Assembly: GCA_025964435.1 (NCBI GenBank)
Contig: JAOPYV010000007.1
Coordinates: 1-55,505 of the forward strand
From: Thermoleophilia bacterium
GTDB lineage: Bacteria; Actinomycetota; Thermoleophilia; Gaiellales; SKUG01
Reading direction: 5' to 3'
DNA length: 55,505 nt
The notes under the pieces: model-generated
The model's database searches: none
What the model was told of the DNA's origin: nothing
The model's input: the letters and a program-made list of their open reading frames with translations, nothing else
Shown: piece by piece, positions 5,452 through 10,596 of the stretch
How the letters are laid out: each line of letters opens with the position of its first letter
Position numbering within the stretch: position 1 is the stretch's first letter
Program-made: the position numbers and the translations under genes

Positions 5452-6996
5452 CTAGAAGAGGCTGATCCCGCGGCCAGGCACTGCGGCGCCGTTTGCGCCG
5501 TTCCAGCGCGCGATGTACGCCTTCGAGTCGAACTTGCGCCCCGTCGATGCCAGGGACATGAAGCGCACCTGGCCGAAGATCTCGCGCTCGTGCCACGGAC
5601 GATCGTGGACGCCACCGATCGCCCATGCCACGCCGGTGACGCCGTTCGGGTCGCGTCCGTCGAGGCTCCATCGGTCGTTGAAGCGCAGGGCGAGCTCGAA
5701 TGCGCCTGCCGCGTCGGGCCGCCACTCCAGCAGCTTCTTCGCCCAGTACATGCGCAGGTAGCCATGCATGGATCCGGTCTCGACCATCTGGTGCTGGGCG
5801 GCGTTCCAGAGCGGGTCATGGGTCGTTCCGGCCGCGAGGTCGTCCTCGTTCCAGAGCCACTCGCGCGGGTCTGCGGCATGGGTGGCGAGCGAGCGCCGTG
5901 CCCACTCCGGAGCTCCCTCGAGCTCGTGGGCATGCGGGTTCCAACGGACGAAGTTGTACGCGAGCTCGCGGCGCACGACGAACTCCTCGACGAAGGTATC
6001 GATGTCGACCGCGGGTGCCTCGGCCGCGCGGACCGTGGCCAGCACCTCGTGGGGAGCGACCTGGCCGAAGTGGACGAACGGGGAGATGTGGCTCGTGCCG
6101 TCGAGCTCGGGCCGGTTGCGCCGGGCGGCGTAGCCGTGCAGCTCCTCGTTGACGAATGCCTCGAGCCGAGCGCGCGCAGCGCGCGTGCCACTGGGCGCAG
6201 AGGTCAGGAGGCTCGCCCCGTCGGGCGTGCCTGCAGCGCGTGCGTGTGCGAGCAGGTCATCCAGCGCGGGGATCGCCGGTGCGAGGTGCACGCCCGCCAG
6301 CTGGAGCGCGGCCGCCGGCACCGGGTGTGCGGGTGCGGTGGGGCCATCGAGCCCATGGCCGAGCTCGCCGTCGAACTGCGCGAGCACCCGATGCAGCCGC
6401 GGGCGCAGCGTGCGCGCCGCGTACTCCTGGCGAGGGAAGCAGGCGCCGGGGACCACGACGTCGGCGTCGACGCTGATGAGCGGTGCGCTGATCGAATTGG
6501 CGACGTGCTCGCGGCCACGTCGCGCGCCGGCCATGACGTCGTCATCGGTGATGACGAGCGCGGGACGCAGTGCTCCATCGCGCGCGAGGAGCTCGACGAT
6601 GGGGACGCCGTCCTGCTCGACGAACAGGACGTGTGCGCCGCGGGCGATGCAGTCATCGAAGGTCTCGGGGAGCGCGCGGAGCATGAACTCGACATGGCGC
6701 AGCTCGGTGCCGGCCGGGCCGGCGAATCGTCGGAACACGACGACGAGTGGGAGGTCCAGGGCGCGCGCCGCGGCGACCGCGCAGTCCAGCGCGAGGTTGT
6801 GGCTGCCGCGCTGCGCACGCGCCATCCAGTACACGACGCTGCGGCCGTCCGCCGCGTGGGTAGCTACGTCGTTCCAGGCCAGCAGCCGCTCGGGGGCACA
6901 CGCATCCGCATCGATGCCGGCGAGCACGGCAACGGCACGCTGCTGCCGTGCATGCGTCCAGGGCGTGCACAGGGAAGTGGTCGTCTCGGGATCCAT
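5452..6996 (-). CDS. phr: deoxyribodipyrimidine (CPD) photolyase, class II
   Basis: C-terminal FAD-binding region DPLWNAAQHQMVETGSMHGYLRMYWAKKLLEW is typical of class II photolyases. Start set at MDPETTT (6996); the track ORF extends to 7089. Confidence 0.85.
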   Translation of the reverse strand: MDPETTTSLCTPWTHARQQRAVAVLAGIDADACAPERLLAWNDVATHAADGRSVVYWMARAQRGSHNLALDCAVAAARALDLPLVVVFRRFAGPAGTELRHVEFMLRALPETFDDCIARGAHVLFVEQDGVPIVELLARDGALRPALVITDDDVMAGARRGREHVANSISAPLISVDADVVVPGACFPRQEYAARTLRPRLHRVLAQFDGELGHGLDGPTAPAHPVPAAALQLAGVHLAPAIPALDDLLAHARAAGTPDGASLLTSAPSGTRAARARLEAFVNEELHGYAARRNRPELDGTSHISPFVHFGQVAPHEVLATVRAAEAPAVDIDTFVEEFVVRRELAYNFVRWNPHAHELEGAPEWARRSLATHAADPREWLWNEDDLAAGTTHDPLWNAAQHQMVETGSMHGYLRMYWAKKLLEWRPDAAGAFELALRFNDRWSLDGRDPNGVTGVAWAIGGVHDRPWHEREIFGQVRFMSLASTGRKFDSKAYIARWNGANGAAVPGRGISLF

Positions 6997-7190
6997 CACC
7001 GACAGGTTCGCACGGCCGCCGGATCTGGATGTGTTCGAGCGCTCCGAGCCCCTGATTCGGCCCTGTCCGGCAGTGGCCGCTTTCGGCATGCCCGTGGCCT
7101 ACCGCGGCCCCCGTGGCCTCGGGAGCGATGTCGGGAGCGCTCGGCCAAGCGACAGCAGGATGAAGGCTCTGCGCCACGCAGCGTCCACAT

Positions 7191-7679: not shown

Positions 7680-8486
7680 TCAGGCGCGACGTGCCGAGGC
7701 GAAGTCGCTGGCACGGGCCGGCTCCTCGAGCAGGCGGGTCAGGATGTTCGACAGCAGGATGCGCAGCTGCGGCAGGCCCCGCTGCTGGGCAAGGCGCGCG
7801 CAGTCGACCGGGCGGAGAAGGATCCCGCGGCGGTAGAGCAGCGCGGTCATGCCGATCCGGACCGCGTTCACGTGGACGCAGATGCCGAGGCCGAGCAGCA
7901 GGATGCCCAAGGCCGCGGCGATCCAAGTCTCGAGGCCCGTGTAGGGAAGCGCGGCATCGCCGACGGCGCCACCGCCAGAAGCGATCGGCATCGGGGCGGT
8001 CGCTGTCGCTGCCGCAGCCGAGGGAACGACAGCCACGGCTGCCGGAGTGGCGATCGCTGCGGCGCGGGCCGGAACCTTGGCGATCGGCTTCTTCGAGATG
8101 GGCTTCTTGGCAACCGGCTTCTTGGCGATCGGCTTGGCGGCCAGGGGCTTGGTGACGACCTTGGGTGCAGTCACCGTCGGGGCGATGCCAACACCACGTG
8201 TCGGGGCGGGGATGTCCATGCCGTCGCCGCCACCGCCGCTGACGACGCGAGGCGTCGCCTCGGTCTTGATGCCACCGGAGGCGAGCGCCTGCCAGCTGCC
8301 GAAGCCGACCAGTGCGACACCGAACAGCACGACGAGGATGCGGCCCCAGCGCACGCGTGTCGCTTGGGCCGTGCCGCCACCCATCACGGGAGCTTGGGGC
8401 GCCATCGGGGTCAGCGTCGGGAAGTTGAAGCCAGCCGGAGCGGCGTACTGGGGGGCAGTGGGCTGAAAGGCGTTGGCAGTGTGCAT
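7680..8486 (-). CDS. membrane/surface protein with N-terminal TM, KKPxA repeats, LPYTG motif, second TM and ~65-aa tail
   Basis: TM helix ILVVLFGVALVGFGSW, repeats KPLAAKPIAKKPVAKKPISKKPIAK, LPYTG followed by LETWIAAALGILLLGLGICV. Start set at MHTANAF (8486) because 8487-8564 is AT-rich. Alternative start at 8564. Confidence 0.75.
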   Translation of the reverse strand: MHTANAFQPTAPQYAAPAGFNFPTLTPMAPQAPVMGGGTAQATRVRWGRILVVLFGVALVGFGSWQALASGGIKTEATPRVVSGGGGDGMDIPAPTRGVGIAPTVTAPKVVTKPLAAKPIAKKPVAKKPISKKPIAKVPARAAAIATPAAVAVVPSAAAATATAPMPIASGGGAVGDAALPYTGLETWIAAALGILLLGLGICVHVNAVRIGMTALLYRRGILLRPVDCARLAQQRGLPQLRILLSNILTRLLEEPARASDFASARRA

Positions 8487-8584
8487 GTCGCGCGTCCCGT
8501 CTCGGCGTCTGGGGTATGCATTCGATTCATCTTGGAATGGATTTTGCAGATCGTCAACAAGCAATCTGAATATTCGCGAATGTA

Positions 8585-8600
8585 TCGAACGTACGTTCGG
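8585..8600. promoter_or_regulatory. LexA (SOS) box 1, TCGAACgtacGTTCGg
   Basis: Matches the actinobacterial LexA operator consensus TCGAAC-N4-GTTCGA at 11/12 arm positions. CGAACGTACGTTCG is a perfect 14-bp palindrome. Confidence 0.75.
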
Positions 8601-8619
8601 TTCTTGTCGGGGATGGGTA

Positions 8620-8635
8620 TCGAACGTGTGTTCGG
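8620..8635. promoter_or_regulatory. LexA (SOS) box 2, TCGAACgtgtGTTCGg
   Basis: Second copy 35 bp downstream of box 1. Both lie inside the direct repeat GTATCGAACGTnnGTTCGGTT. Confidence 0.75.
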
Positions 8636-8673
8636 TTGGATTGGTGCCGCGGGTGGCGGCAAGAGGAGCTCAG

Positions 8674-8787
8674 ATGGAACTCGTACTCAAGGTGGTCCTC
8701 GTCGGCTACGTCATGTATTCCGTGCTCGGTGCGCCCTTGGTGGCTGCGCGGCGCGACCAGGTTTCCGGGCGGCGGATCGCGCGCTGA
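8674..8787 (+). CDS. 37-aa hydrophobic peptide (candidate SOS-regulated small membrane protein/toxin)
   Basis: AGGAG (8664-8668) lies 5 nt before the ATG. Sequence MELVLKVVLVGYVMYSVLGAPLVAARRDQVSGRRIAR. G/C third positions. Terminator hairpin downstream and LexA boxes upstream. Confidence 0.5.
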   Translation: MELVLKVVLVGYVMYSVLGAPLVAARRDQVSGRRIAR

Positions 8788-8811
8788 CGCGGCGACACGT
8801 TCGGGTGGGAC

Positions 8812-8857
8812 GGGGGCGAGGAGGCGGTCGCGCTGCGCGGGCTGCATCCTCGCCCCC
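8812..8857 (+). terminator. hairpin terminator after the 37-codon ORF
   Basis: 11-bp stem GGGGGCGAGGA (8812-8822) / TCCTCGCCCCC (8847-8857), followed by GCAGTTCTTCG. Confidence 0.6.
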
Positions 8858-8944
8858 GCAGTTCTTCGCGGGTCACGGTGGCCGTTCTTGGTGCTGCCAA
8901 GATGAGAGCTACGTGCAGGTGTTTTCGTCCAAGCGGCCACAGCT

Positions 8945-8999
8945 TGGCCGCATTCGTGAAACACCGAGCTTGGCCGAACCCGATAGTCAGGTACATAGC
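8945..8999 (+). promoter_or_regulatory. conserved promoter-like box, unit A (TGGCCGCaTTCGTGAAACA-N17-CGATAGtcAGGTACATAGC)
   Basis: Aligns block-for-block with 9252-9305. The intervening sequence is not conserved, as expected for -35/-10-type elements. Confidence 0.5.
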
Positions 9000-9205
9000 G
9001 TGTGGCTATCGCCGCCGGGCTTGTCCCCCCTTTCACGCAGCTGGAGTTCCGTCCCCCCTGAAACCCAGCTGCGTTGCCCGGCAGCGTGTCGTCCCCCCGA
9101 AGCCATGCGTACCTGGTCGATACGAGCATCGTGTCCCCCGTCCCCCCTTGGGATGCGGCGCTCCGACCAACGAAAGGCCCCGGCTGTCCCGCCGGGGCCT
9201 TTTCG
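8990..9205 (+). ncRNA. candidate C-rich-loop small RNA 1 (6C-like, expanded)
   Basis: GTCCCCC(C) at 9023, 9051, 9091, 9133 and 9140, plus GTCCC in the terminator loop. 9-bp hairpin CGCAGCTGG (9036-9044) / CCAGCTGCG (9065-9073) and 5-bp hairpin GCATC (9126-9130) / GATGC (9152-9156) place the motifs in loops. Intrinsic terminator GGCCCCGG / CCGGGGCC + TTTTCG (9176-9205). The 5' end is inferred. Confidence 0.5.
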
Positions 9206-9251
9206 AATTCTGGTTCGTACGCGGGGATTTCATCGACGGCCGGCCGGCCAC

Positions 9252-9305
9252 TGGCCGCTTTCGTGAAACAAGTCCGGGCGCTGTCGCGATAGAGAGGTAC
9301 ATAGC
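9252..9305 (+). promoter_or_regulatory. conserved promoter-like box, unit B (TGGCCGCtTTCGTGAAACA-N16-CGATAGagAGGTACATAGC)
   Basis: Second copy of the box at 8945-8999, about 307 nt downstream. Confidence 0.5.
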
Positions 9306-9513
9306 AAGCAACATGCCGCCCCCGGGCGACGTGTCCCCCCTCGTCAGAGCCGATCGCGTTGTCCCCCGTCGATTGGTTTTCGCCCAGGATCCGGCTGCTG
9401 CTTGCGCGCTGCGTCACATCGCTTCCTGAACCACGTTCCCCTCGTCCCGTTTTGGAAGCGGACAGCAGCATTCGAAGCGCCCCGGTCGTCCCCCCGGGGC
9501 GCTTCTGTCTTCC
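9297..9513 (+). ncRNA. candidate C-rich-loop small RNA 2 (6C-like, expanded)
   Basis: GTCCCCC(C) at 9333, 9361 and 9488, plus GTTCCCC/GTCCC at 9435/9444. Nested stems GCTGCTG (9394-9400) / CAGCAGC (9463-9469) and GCTTCC (9421-9426) / GGAAGC (9454-9459). 12-bp terminal hairpin GAAGCGCCCCGG (9474-9485) / CCGGGGCGCTTC (9494-9505) with loop TCGTCCCC. The U-tract is weak. Confidence 0.45.
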
Positions 9514-9642
9514 TACGCGGCCGATCCGGGCCAAGGCAGGCCGGTACGCATTGAGGACGACGGGGGTCAGGCGTAGCGTTGCGACCCTCACGCCTCGGGC
9601 GTGGGGGACACGCAACGAAGCGGCAACGCAGGGGATATCGCC

Positions 9643-10596
9643 ATGCTCAACGCAACGGGCAAGATCATCATCATCATGCCGGAGCCGCGAAATGGCGGGA
9701 GTCGCCATCTTCCGCCGGTCGCCCACGCACCCCACGGAAACCATGGGTCCACGCGCCACGCGCCTCAGCCCGGATCGGTGGATCCCGTCCAGCAGCAGCA
9801 GCTGGCAGAGCATCACATCGCCGACGTGCGCCGCTTCTTCTCCGGCATCGGCGTCACGGAACGCGAAGGAAACGCATCGAACGTGCCCGTCGTGTTCGAC
9901 CCGTCCTTCGAGAACGCGGCGTACGTGCGCCAGATCGATACGCGCACGAACCAGATGGTCGGCGAGTCCCTCCAGATCGGTGTCGACCCCGAGAGTGGGG
10001 AGAGCTATGCCAAGGCGAAGGACGTCATGGCGCACGAATGGACGCATCGCATCACCAACGCGCTCGTGCCCGGGCTGCTCACTGGCGCCCACTTCGGCTC
10101 TGACATGGCGATCGGCGAGTCGCTCGCCGACACGCTCGCCGCGGCGTACGACACTGACGACTGGGACATCGGCGAGGACATCGGCACGCCCGTTCGCAAC
10201 ATGGCTGATCCAGGTCGCTACGGTGATCCGGCCCACATGACCGACCTCAAGAAGATCTACGAATCCGGTGACGAGCGGGTCCAGGTCGTCCGCCGTCCCG
10301 ACGGCCAGCATGCCTTCCGCGTCGAGGGGCACCTGCTCGCCGGCATCCCGAACAAGGCTGCATCACTCATCGGCGATGCGATCGGGCGCGACAAGATGGC
10401 CCAGATCTACCTCGACACCGCGCGCAACAACCTGCAGCCTTGTCGGGGGCTCGACGGCTATGCCGCGGGCGTCATGATGTCGGCGCGCGACCTCTTCGGA
10501 CCGCAGAGCCGCGAGTTCCAGGCGACGACGCAGGCGTTCGACGCCGTCGGCCTCCTCGACCAGGTCAAGGCGCAGCGGGAGCCGTCGCGCCGCTGA
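9643..10596 (+). CDS. M4 (thermolysin-family) zinc metallopeptidase without signal peptide (protealysin-like)
   Basis: HEXXH as AHEWTH, and a downstream Glu motif GESLADT equivalent to thermolysin NEAxSD. No N-terminal signal peptide. ATG 9643 chosen (AGGGGA SD); the track ORF starts at GTG 9601. Confidence 0.85.
   Translation: MLNATGKIIIIMPEPRNGGSRHLPPVAHAPHGNHGSTRHAPQPGSVDPVQQQQLAEHHIADVRRFFSGIGVTEREGNASNVPVVFDPSFENAAYVRQIDTRTNQMVGESLQIGVDPESGESYAKAKDVMAHEWTHRITNALVPGLLTGAHFGSDMAIGESLADTLAAAYDTDDWDIGEDIGTPVRNMADPGRYGDPAHMTDLKKIYESGDERVQVVRRPDGQHAFRVEGHLLAGIPNKAASLIGDAIGRDKMAQIYLDTARNNLQPCRGLDGYAAGVMMSARDLFGPQSREFQATTQAFDAVGLLDQVKAQREPSRR

Follow-up and report, generated by a model that had tools for sequence, protein, structure and literature searches.

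6C RNA measures about 80 nt and has a pair of stem-loops whose loops each contain six or more conserved C's (PMC5014011); base pairing of the loops with G-rich RBSs needs no chaperone (PMC6486639). In Corynebacterium glutamicum, 6C has been linked to the SOS response and its promoters are of the SigA/SigB types (PMC5014011). RoxS and FsrA also act via C-rich regions, and G-rich sponge RNAs can buffer their activity (PMC8216469). In NfeR1, an alpha-r14 RNA, three hairpins with divergent stems carry an identical anti-SD motif; the seeds are redundant, and sibling genes are often found in tandem (PMC10746234).

We analyzed a 55,505-nt stretch of DNA from a Thermoleophilia bacterium (hereafter the window) together with related loci (L numbers). 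[quoted passage not shown] In the literature collection searched, no paper dealt with small RNAs of Thermoleophilia. The first-pass annotation of the window had described two tandem ~307-nt units encoding 6C-like RNAs. Two genes with that spacing are present:

8993..9206, plus strand: sRNA A, ~214 nt, 5' end predicted from the conserved GGTACATAG
9299..9512, plus strand: sRNA B, ~214 nt, 5' end predicted

The two are not copies of one unit. With promoter, motif and terminator excluded, the two units of the window shared just 58% identity, and identities of 67% (A-A), 71% (B-B) and 57% (A-B) define two paralogous families. Both are absent from Rfam 15. Each has a promoter and a terminator of its own and is predicted to be transcribed as an independent gene. 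The elements upstream of the two genes are as follows:

8877..8887, plus strand: distal box GGTGGCCGTTC, upstream of the TGGCCGnTTC box adjoining the -35 element and a degenerate copy of that box; conserved in the alignment of 20 promoters
8925..8929, plus strand: GCAGG box, ~65 nt 5' of the predicted start of sRNA A, in (nearly) invariant alignment columns
8935..8949, plus strand: palindrome GGCCACAGCTTGGCC, 22 nt 5' of the -35 element of A, candidate operator
8957..8985, plus strand: promoter of sRNA A, ECF-like, -35 TGAAAC at 8957-8962 and -10 CGATA at 8981-8985
9242..9256, plus strand: palindrome GGCCGGCCACTGGCC, 5' of the sRNA B promoter
9264..9291, plus strand: promoter of sRNA B, -35 TGAAAC at 9264-9269 and -10 CGATA at 9287-9291

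Both genes possess a conserved non-sigma-70 promoter, TGAAAC-N17/18-CGATA-N4-GGTACATAG. Within the window, TGAAAC-N15-20-CGATA occurs at these two sites only (0.01 expected), and TGAAAC-N17/18-CGATA (equivalent to GAAAC-N18/19-GAT) is invariant across 20 aligned sRNA promoters. The promoter-like blocks pointed out earlier are 95% (8945-8963 versus 9252-9270) and 89% identical (8981-8999 versus 9287-9305) at spacings of 307 and 306 nt. A promoter scan found no sigma-70-type site at the sRNA promoters, and 136 kb of sequence searched for additional copies of this promoter gave chance-like sites only, without flanking conservation. Upstream of the -35 element, GGCC(A/G)-N5-6-(T/G)GGCC is positioned 21-22 nt away at 14 sRNA promoters of other loci and is missing from a few.

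The first-pass annotation had judged the promoters to be FliA/WhiG-like rather than sigma-70-type, and the second part of this judgment holds. The FliA/WhiG (sigma-28) consensus is TAAA-N15-GCCGATAA; compared with it, the promoters of A and B keep the CGATA core but read GAAAC at -35, and their spacing exceeds that of the consensus by 1-2 nt. Neither flagellar nor whi genes were seen close by. ECF promoters have an AAC-containing -35 element and a -10 element of CGT, CGA or GAT, about 16-20 nt apart (PMC5758882), and the sigma-D promoter of C. glutamicum is GTAAC-N17-20-GAT (PMC11588781). With AAC at -35 and CGAT at -10, the promoters of A and B appear to be of the actinobacterial ECF (sigma-D-like) type, which fits at least as well as FliA/WhiG; the cognate factor would then be an ECF sigma factor. 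A sigma-54 reading of TGGCCG-N5-GTGAA was dropped, as the GC of a -12 element is missing; to our knowledge, sigma-54 is absent from Actinobacteria. A LexA-like box at 9203-9217 was also dismissed (one mismatch, not conserved among relatives).

The architecture of promoter and motifs recurs in about 15 other loci, where the C-rich motifs are kept; all the named ones are from Thermoleophilia or Gaiellales MAGs. Orthologues of A are found in L005, L008, L015, L016, L020 and L030, of which L016 and L030 have two copies each, and L002 and L025 hold divergent A-like units; orthologues of B are found in L005, L008, L015, L018, L019, L020, L021, L022, L024, L027, L029 and L030, and L025 also holds a divergent B-like unit. 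Each locus carries one to three sRNA genes. Relative to shuffled sequences, A folds with z scores of -7.8 to -8.0 and B with -7.2 to -7.6, and all of the units tested (20/20) fold with z scores of -3.7 to -8.3. As predicted by folding, A and B share one layout, a 5' multi-branch domain followed by a long second hairpin and a terminator:

9023..9030, plus strand: motif 1 of A, GUCCCCCC, single-stranded in the multi-branch junction, P(unpaired) 0.99
9035..9074, plus strand: hairpin P3 of A, with GUCCCCCC (9051-9058) in the loop
9089..9100, plus strand: mini-hairpin of A, with GUCCCCCC at 9091-9098, P(unpaired) 0.87
9114..9169, plus strand: domain-2 hairpin of A, with the double motif GUCCCCCGUCCCCCC at 9133-9147
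9171..9205, plus strand: terminator hairpin of A, with a perfect 12-bp core (9173-9184/9191-9202), the loop CUGUCCCG and UUUUCG after it
9328..9345, plus strand: hairpin H1 of B, with GUCCCCCC at 9333-9340, P(unpaired) 0.90
9346..9380, plus strand: hairpin H2 of B, conserved GAUCGCGUUGUCCCCCGUCGAU, loop motif at 9361-9367, helix 88.7% paired in the alignment
9408..9469, plus strand: domain-2 hairpin of B, with GUUCCCCUCGUCCCG (9435-9449) in the loop
9474..9505, plus strand: terminator hairpin of B, with GUCGUCCCCCC in the loop and the motif at 9488-9495, helix 100% paired

The stems noted by eye earlier lie within these minimum-free-energy (MFE) folds (9035-9074, 9114-9169, 9408-9469 and the terminators at 9173-9202 and 9474-9505). 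An intrinsic terminator consists of a GC-rich hairpin and a U-tract. Both terminators here have perfect 12-bp stems, with the tails UUUUCG (A) and UCUGUCUUCC (B); the U-tract is short after A (UUUU) and interrupted after B, and a terminator scan listed that of B only.

Covariation was scored on MAFFT alignments made from sequence alone and fitted to no structure, with slid structures as controls. For family A, 93.2% of cells were paired and 24/48 pairs showed double changes (slid controls, 33-45% and 2-7), and none of 500 shuffles reached the observed values; for family B, the figures were 85.5% and 21/54 (slid controls, 38-45% and 6-13). The divergent A-type units of L002 and L025 were excluded from these counts because MAFFT misaligned them, and the consensus of B was taken as the majority of MFE folds, RNAalifold on the 13 B units having lost helix P1. 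Hairpin P3 of A showed compensatory changes in 11/11 pairs. In the helices, G.U cells outnumbered A.C cells by 26:2 (A) and 23:7 (B). Covarying stems, fixed loops and the large excess of G.U over A.C point to selection at the RNA level and on the plus strand, the strand also indicated by the promoter upstream and the terminator downstream. Conservation in about 15 other loci, covariation and the G.U and A.C counts bore out the earlier proposal of plus-strand non-coding RNA genes that display C-runs in loops. With such unusually clear comparative support, A and B could be submitted as new families.

GTCCCCC occurs 8 times on the plus strand within 9023-9495 (six times as GTCCCCCC and twice as GTCCCCC) and once in the remaining 55 kb of that strand. 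Shuffled sequences contained 9.2 copies per 111 kb (both strands), corresponding to about 0.04 expected in 9023-9495, so that the excess first noted from a rough estimate is real. Each RNA holds four to six copies of (C)GUCCCC(CC) in loops or junctions, and the location of the C-runs in loops, also proposed before, agrees with their predicted P(unpaired) of mostly 0.7-1.0, versus 0.36 overall. In the double motif of A, copy 1 is partly paired with GGGAU (P(unpaired) 0.33) and copy 2 is in the loop (0.92). GU precedes 80/110 C-runs and CGU precedes 64/110. G-runs of at least four occur in each RNA in the terminator arm only. A G-quadruplex or i-motif reading of the C-runs was set aside, given spacers of 20-40 nt and selection on RNA helices.

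Rfam covariance searches, with family membership defined by the gathering score (47 bits for 6C, RF01066; 40 bits for Rhizobiales-2, RF01723), found no family at threshold in the window or in 12 related loci. The top-scoring alignment was to Rhizobiales-2 (27.2 bits versus 40), whose 3' hairpin loop GGUUGUCCCCCCGG is that of the sRNA B terminator; however, this terminator hairpin alone aligned, the rest of the model was unmatched, and the hosts are unrelated. Of the alpha-r families, none reached threshold, and ar7 gave chance-level matches only. A and B resemble alpha-r14 (cuckoo) RNAs, such as NfeR1 of Sinorhizobium, in carrying the same loop motif on diverged stems, as exemplified by P3 of A, whereas the alpha-r14 motif is CCUCCUCCC (a true anti-SD) instead of GUCCCCCC and its hosts are Alphaproteobacteria. 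CcsR1-4 of Rhodobacter also belong to the alpha-r14 (cuckoo) sRNAs. The design is also like that of RoxS/RsaE, FsrA and CsfG of Firmicutes, in which several C-rich regions pair with G-rich or SD regions of many mRNAs, but these differ in phylum, sequence and structure, have shorter C-rich regions (CCCC) and gave no Rfam match.

In the relatives, the order of genes is conserved: a LexA-controlled gene for a hydrophobic peptide of 31-37 aa, one to three sRNA genes and an M4-like peptidase gene. In the window, the neighbouring features are as follows:

8585..8634, unstranded: two LexA boxes, TCGAACGTACGTTCG at 8585-8599 and TCGAACGTGTGTTCG at 8620-8634; context, outside the sRNA genes
8674..8787, plus strand: conserved gene for a hydrophobic 37-aa peptide (MELVLKVVLVGYVMYSVLGAPLVAARRDQVSGRRIAR), 3' of the LexA boxes; context
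9519..9579, plus strand: sigma-A-like peptidase promoter, palindrome GGCCGATCCGGGCC at 9519-9532, -35 TTGAGG at 9551-9556, 17-nt spacer, -10 TAGCGT at 9574-9579
9598..9613, plus strand: candidate target site GGCGUGGGGGACACGC, within the peptidase mRNA 5' UTR
9643..10596, plus strand: M4-like (thermolysin-like) metallopeptidase gene, Pfam PF02868, PDB thermolysin E = 5e-17, syntenic with sRNA B

The arrangement TTGAG-N17-19-TAGCGT recurs at the peptidase genes of relatives. On the P0058 contig, the gap between the peptide and peptidase genes is just 174 nt, so an sRNA is probably absent there. These fixed neighbours, an SOS-controlled micro-peptide and a peptidase with GGGAC(G) in its RBS, lead to testable hypotheses of regulation.

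The RBS region of the peptidase gene contains GGGAC(G), the complement of the repeated motif, in 8/9 relatives, which makes its mRNA a candidate target. The site in the 5' UTR is complementary at 10/10 positions to CGUGUCCCCC of A (9130-9139) and B (9330-9339), and among ~45 probable genes of the window, the adjacent peptidase gene alone carries GGGGGAC close to the start. The complementary stretch in most relatives comprises just GGGAC(G) and a few flanking pairs. Whole-sRNA RNAduplex predictions against the peptidase TIR gave percentiles of 0.15-0.93 with long, unrealistic interior loops and were replaced by a loop-only test. In this test the best duplex at the peptidase site reached -24.8 kcal/mol (top 1.6% of window segments), and duplexes of loops with the peptidase TIR ranked in the top 1.5-25% in 8/8 loci (Fisher p = 4e-4), the background being random local segments and not a large set of TIRs of other genes. 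For the peptide gene, which served as negative control, the corresponding values were 0.44 (TIR) and 0.99 (CDS). On this modest evidence, the M4-like peptidase mRNA is the best candidate target of A and B.

With no Rfam family at threshold, A and B are taken to work like 6C, RoxS or alpha-r14 multi-seed sRNAs without being members of 6C. We consider it probable that they are sibling trans-acting sRNAs with their own alternative-sigma promoters and redundant C-loops that pair with G-rich RBSs, the peptidase being the best candidate target. Each would be transcribed from its ECF-like promoter, with the palindromic operator-like site in front and the GC hairpin ending the transcript, and the scaffold would keep the four to six (C)GUCCCC(CC) copies unpaired in loops and junctions. 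By analogy with 6C, RoxS/FsrA and alpha-r14/NfeR1, the C-rich seeds would pair with GGGG(GG)AC(G) in or near RBSs, and the result would be a stop of translation, decay of the mRNA or both, probably with no need of a chaperone. Transcription, the sigma factor, the target, the regulatory function and base pairing as its mode of action are presumed. A and B would extend the C-rich-loop/G-rich-RBS strategy to a deep actinobacterial branch, where it appears exaggerated: each RNA carries 4-6 seeds, and there are up to three sibling genes.

An invariant motif repeated four to six times per RNA is also a hallmark of protein-titrating RNAs. It is possible, if unlikely, that A and B are CsrB/RsmZ-like decoys for a C-rich-RNA-binding protein (KH, CSD, S1 or Rho) that would be sequestered under stress. 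The near-identical 8-nt motifs always lie in loops, their invariant GU/CGU prefix exceeds the needs of a C-run seed, and a copy number of siblings that varies from 1 to 3 per locus is typical of decoys. However, the locus contains no conserved candidate partner gene, the CGU prefix matches the GGGACG of the peptidase RBS, and 6C, RoxS, FsrA and NfeR1 all act by base pairing (PMC6486639, PMC8216469, PMC10746234). The likeness to CsrB/RsmY/RsmZ, one short motif in many hairpin loops and the presence of sibling genes, is architectural only: A and B show no GGA-loop pattern, and their repeated motif is C-rich. The motif of CsrB/RsmY/RsmZ is GGA, bound by CsrA/RsmA; neither this motif nor such a protein is present here, and CsrA-type systems (GGA motifs) are not known from Actinobacteria.

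On a wider reading, which is speculative and rather unlikely, A and B may form the RNA arm of a conserved, hitherto unrecognised Thermoleophilia stress module with roles beyond 6C-like silencing, in which a LexA-controlled small membrane peptide, one to three multivalent ECF-driven C-loop RNAs and a cytoplasmic M4-like peptidase would be tied together by a common GGCC-N-GGCC operator in front of many of the promoters. The RNAs could then, for example, act as multivalent decoys that draw off a C-rich-RNA-binding protein or G-rich RNAs, or they could link SOS and envelope-stress signals with regulation of the toxin-like peptide and the peptidase.

That A and B are true but highly diverged 6C homologues, of the same family and enlarged by internal duplication of the C-loop hairpin, is quite unlikely. 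A and B share with 6C (B11 of Mycobacterium, cgb_03605 of C. glutamicum) an actinobacterial host and loops with six C's; the best weak alignment sets UCCCCCCUUGG of hairpin P6 against the loop consensus of 6C, UCCCCCCcugG; and their surroundings are related to SOS, to which C. glutamicum 6C is also linked (PMC5014011). The Rfam 6C model, suggested in the first-pass annotation as a check of 6C-likeness, gave a best match of 21.8 bits versus 47 (E = 3.1 in a 1.2-kb search; window 9084-9166, falling on the domain-2 hairpin of A), no match with E <= 10 in 8 homologous loci and none at the gathering score in 12, which places A and B outside 6C. They are also longer (~215 nt versus ~80), have four to six motif sites instead of two, a multi-branch 5' domain, a fixed (C)GU prefix on the motif and an ECF-like instead of a SigA/SigB promoter, and occur as 1-3 sibling genes at one locus where the LexA boxes belong to a neighbouring gene. 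Of the earlier idea of a multi-seed 6C variant, the multi-seed part stands as the best mechanistic reading and membership of 6C does not.

The LexA boxes, 34-35 nt apart in 10/13 of the first loci and also found in L027, L029 and L030, appear to control the upstream small-peptide gene rather than the sRNA promoters, 370-410 nt away. The earlier inference of an SOS link from these boxes was correct in that they are real and conserved and that 6C of C. glutamicum is SOS-linked (PMC5014011); here the link is by neighbourhood only. It is very unlikely that A and B regulate the peptide in an antitoxin-like or 3'-UTR-directed manner, as parts of an SOS module resembling type-I toxin-antitoxin systems. 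With its hydrophobic helix and basic tail, the peptide, which matched no Pfam or NCBIfam family, does look like an SOS-induced membrane toxin, and its gene, with a double LexA box, lies directly 5' of the sRNA genes in 13 loci. No terminator hairpin lies between the peptide gene and the sRNA in four loci. The 3' region of the peptide mRNA is strongly complementary to the C-loops in 4/10 loci (-28.2 kcal/mol in the window, p = 0.001) but not in the other 6/10, no excess complementarity to the TIR or CDS was found (Fisher p = 0.44 and 0.99), for which the peptide gene was rejected as a target, and L002 and L016 hold A-type genes at a distance from the peptide gene.

As noted previously, the motif falls in all three codon phases of ORF 8878-9429. 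The B units have stops in every frame, and the indels among homologues are not multiples of three; by phases, stops and indels, the region is non-coding, and a Pfam search gave no match there. That there are no RNA genes, and that the region is instead a coding sequence (ORF 8878-9429 spans it in the window, and public annotation puts a 268-aa gene over the three units of L030), a DNA repeat or iteron array, or a long cis-acting peptidase leader (the B terminator lies ~45 nt 5' of the peptidase promoter), is extremely improbable in view of the frame-breaking changes, the covarying stems with fixed loops and G.U excess, the promoter and terminator of each unit, the separate conserved TTGAG-N17-19-TAGCGT promoter of the peptidase gene, and the A-type units in L002 and L016 without a nearby peptidase gene. 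Spurious ORFs are called over the sRNA genes, one of 183 aa in the window and the annotated 268-aa 'protein' in L030.

The first-pass annotation described two tandem 6C-like small-RNA (sRNA) units of ~307 nt. All of the sequence features that it listed were present when we read positions 8400-10100, where we recognize the following:

8585-8599 and 8620-8634: a pair of perfect LexA boxes at a distance of 35 nt, box 2 overlapping a GGGTAT -10-like element
8674-8787: peptide gene, 3' of the LexA boxes
8993-9206, + strand: sRNA A (predicted, type A), with a 5' helix (P1) closing a junction, a long second hairpin with a double motif, and a terminator
9299-9512, + strand: sRNA B (predicted, type B), of the same general plan, with the hallmarks GAUCGCGUUGUCCCCCGUCGAUC and GUCCCCUCGUCCCG and the terminator loop GUCGUCCCCCC
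9643-10596: M4-like peptidase gene

The blocks TGGCCGC(a/t)TTCGTGAAACA and CGATAGnnAGGTACATAGC were repeated at distances of 307 and 306 nt (repeat families D4 and D5). The motif of both sRNAs, (C)GUCCCC(CC) in RNA, is found as GTCCCCC eight times on the + strand of 9023-9495, six of these being GTCCCCCC, and only once more on the + strand of the 55.5-kb window; shuffles gave ~9 in 111 kb (both strands counted), corresponding to ~0.04 for 9023-9495. TGAAAC-N15-20-CGATA had two sites in the window, both of them here (expected, 0.01). Relative to dinucleotide shuffles, both ~212-nt stretches folded much more stably (z of -8.0 and -7.6), and the stems named in the annotation were recovered within these folds.

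With a DNA pattern built from the promoters, a search of 185,579 species genomes yielded three Thermoleophilia/Gaiellales MAGs that have this arrangement, plus 9 unrelated chance matches, all 9 without the C-motif cluster. The same pattern identified five further loci in JGI metagenome contigs, and homologues of the peptidase and the upstream membrane protein led to eight more. In the resulting comparison set (25 units from 16 loci), mean identity was 0.67 between A units, 0.71 between B units and 0.57 between A and B; therefore, the window carries two paralogous genes rather than one unit duplicated in tandem, as had been proposed. The junction of type A contains one motif in single-stranded form, hairpin P3 with a further motif in its loop, and a motif-bearing mini-hairpin. 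The number of sRNA genes per locus is one (B only), two (A+B) or three (A+A'+B); in L030, the locus with three, A, A' and B lie in tandem (1711-2577, - strand) and fill the space that separates the peptide gene from the peptidase gene. Further A-type genes lie at other genome sites (L002 and L016). On another relative contig, P0058 (JGI 3300048101), the peptide-to-peptidase gap is just 174 nt, too short for an sRNA gene, so some members of the syntenic locus may lack the sRNA.

The annotation had proposed folding and covariation as a check. Counting covariation on MAFFT alignments made from sequence alone, and so not fitted to any structure, we found compensatory changes in both families.

Covariation in the two sRNA families
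Family A: 9 sequences; 48 pairs; 93.2% of cells paired; 24 pairs changed on both sides; controls, 0/500 shuffles reaching the observed value, slid alignments 33-45% paired with 2-7 double changes
Family B: 13 sequences; 54 pairs; 85.5% of cells paired; 21 pairs changed on both sides; controls, 0/500 shuffles reaching the observed value, slid alignments 38-45% paired with 6-13 double changes

In the family A hairpin displaying GUCCCCCC, 11/11 pairs covaried, and smaller alignments agreed. G.U outnumbered A.C in helix cells (26:2 in A, 23:7 in B), which identifies the C-rich strand as the RNA. All 20 units tested folded more stably than their shuffles (z from -3.7 to -8.3). In these units the C-runs had a mean unpaired probability of 0.7-1.0, versus ~0.36 across the RNA as a whole; only the first half of A's double motif deviates, being paired with GGGAY further 3'. 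C-runs were preceded by GU in 80/110 cases and by CGU in 64/110, while G-runs of at least four were confined to the terminator arm of each RNA. The most economical reading is that A and B would act as a pair of multi-seed base-pairing sRNAs aimed at GGGG(GG)AC(G). An invariant 8-nt motif in multiple copies, together with a variable gene copy number, is also how a protein decoy would be expected to look, but we consider that role unlikely.

For the base-pairing reading, a candidate target lies next to the sRNA genes. Among ~45 probable genes of the window, only the adjacent peptidase gene has GGGGGAC near its start (9603-9609), and this site is complementary at 10/10 positions to CGUGUCCCCC of both sRNAs. 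In relatives the ribosome-binding region of the peptidase gene reads GGGAAGGGAC(G), and that of the peptide gene is an ordinary GGAGG. Ranked against local segments as background, the loop-only duplex with the peptidase initiation region was in the top 1.5-25% in 8/8 loci (Fisher p = 4e-4); the comparison for the peptide gene gave 0.44 for the initiation region and 0.99 for the coding sequence. These results are suggestive, though not proof, of the peptidase mRNA as a first target. The peptidase itself matches Pfam PF02868 and thermolysin (E = 5e-17); its closest match is 49% identical, hence no close relative, and all named matches are Thermoleophilia MAGs. Read from ATG 9643, it has 317 aa and an HEWTH zinc motif, with the Pfam match limited to the C-terminal domain. 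Inspection of its N-terminus by eye revealed no obvious signal peptide or propeptide, which would be unusual, as thermolysin-like enzymes are normally secreted.

Assignment to the 6C family did not hold. Neither the window nor 12 related loci contained a match at or above the gathering score of any Rfam 15 family; at permissive thresholds 6C scored 21.8 bits (cut-off 47, E = 3.1), and eight homologous loci gave no 6C match with E <= 10. 6C is an RNA of ~80 nt with two stem-loops and at least six C's per loop (PMC5014011), whereas A and B are ~215 nt long with another fold. Deep homology to 6C, supported by no test, is very unlikely. By analogy, the functional likeness to known sRNAs is strong: in 6C, the loops bind G-rich ribosome-binding sites by pairing, without a chaperone (PMC6486639), NfeR1/alpha-r14 carries an identical anti-SD motif in three hairpins with divergent stems (PMC10746234), and RoxS and FsrA use multiple C-rich regions (PMC8216469). 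The annotation was right about the kind of element, predicted sRNA genes with C-rich seed loops. Comparative analysis gives good support to A and B as two new predicted sRNA families, of known functional kind, from an unexplored lineage; a literature search for Thermoleophilia small RNAs found no such report. For the region as a whole, the best Rfam alignment was to Rhizobiales-2, an unrelated alphaproteobacterial motif without an assigned function (27.2 bits, cut-off 40); it came through the loop of the B terminator hairpin (9474-9505) alone, GUCCCCCC in both, and the likeness could reflect convergence on one C-rich terminator loop.

The conserved genomic setting of A and B is of interest in itself. 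Gene order is maintained: a membrane protein gene (245-299 aa, opposite strand), two LexA boxes, the peptide gene, the sRNA gene(s) and the peptidase gene, often with a CARDB protein gene 3' of it. Of the first 13 loci, 10 have the pair of LexA boxes, 34-35 nt apart, as do L027, L029 and L030; the boxes are therefore real and conserved. The direct link that the annotation drew between them and the sRNAs was mistaken: they lie 370-410 nt 5' of the start of sRNA A and serve the peptide gene. Another LexA-like site (9203-9217, TCGAATTCTGGTTCG, one mismatch), between the A terminator and the B promoter, was rejected, not being conserved elsewhere. The peptide is conserved, hydrophobic and 31-37 aa long (MELVLKVxLVGYVxYxVLGAP...), and falls into no Pfam or NCBIfam family; it resembles an SOS-induced membrane micro-protein and may be toxin-like. 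The case for an antitoxin-like role of the sRNAs towards it is weakened because the peptide initiation region lacks complementarity, although the 3' region of the peptide mRNA is strongly complementary in 4/10 loci. In the window, a G-rich stretch 3' of the peptide ORF is 77% complementary over 22 nt to sRNA A at its double C-motif (-28.2 kcal/mol). This stretch, UUCGGG(G)UGGG(AC)G, is conserved at the nucleotide level together with a strong hairpin (the two at 8798-8858), with counterparts in L005 (3740-3810), L008, L015 and L024 (5515-5590); both are kept even where the peptide ORF stops earlier (L005, L008 and L015). DNA-damage-related genes are abundant nearby, with a photolyase gene in the window (5452-7089, - strand) and SIR2-family, photolyase and RmuC genes adjoining the membrane protein gene in L027, L029 and L030. 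The window opens with the 3' end of 23S rRNA (1-395), followed by 5S rRNA (485-601).

Alignment of 20 upstream regions gave the common core TGGCC(G/C)nTTyCG-TGAAAC-A-N15/16-(G/C)CGATA-N4-GGTACATAG, with a GCAGG box and a distal TGGCCGnTTC box also in common. In 136 kb of sequence examined, this promoter motif was confined to these sRNA genes, for which no sigma-70-type site was found. The annotation had likened the promoters to the FliA/WhiG type; they share its CGATA core and, as it noted, differ in spacing by 1-2 nt, but that sigma type is probably wrong. ECF promoters are marked by AAC within the -35 and CGAT as the -10 (PMC5758882), and GAAAC-N18/19-GAT here is similar to the Corynebacterium glutamicum sigma-D consensus, GTAAC-N17-20-GAT (PMC11588781); an ECF sigma is therefore favoured on promoter sequence. 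The peptidase gene has a separate promoter, TTGAG-N17-19-TAGCGT. At most sRNA promoters a palindrome, GGCC(A/G)-N5-6-(T/G)GGCC, lies 21-22 nt 5' of the -35 (8935-8949 and 9242-9256 in the window). Five loci have the palindrome 21-22 nt 5' of LexA box 1 as well, and five have it ~31 nt 5' of the -35 of the peptidase gene (9519-9532 in the window); the element is present in L005, L008, L015, L018, L019, L021, L024 and others. Its presence at the peptide, sRNA and peptidase promoters suggests a single common DNA-binding factor.

A coding, DNA-repeat or cis-leader region in place of sRNA genes is contradicted by covariation, strand asymmetry and separate promoters; coding is excluded because every frame of the B units contains stops, gap lengths are not multiples of three and the protein-family search of the region gave no match. 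The 268-aa protein that public annotation places over the L030 sRNA genes (1961-2767, + strand) is in all likelihood spurious. The 183-aa window ORF 8878-9429, in which the motif falls in all three codon phases as first reported, is a like artefact.
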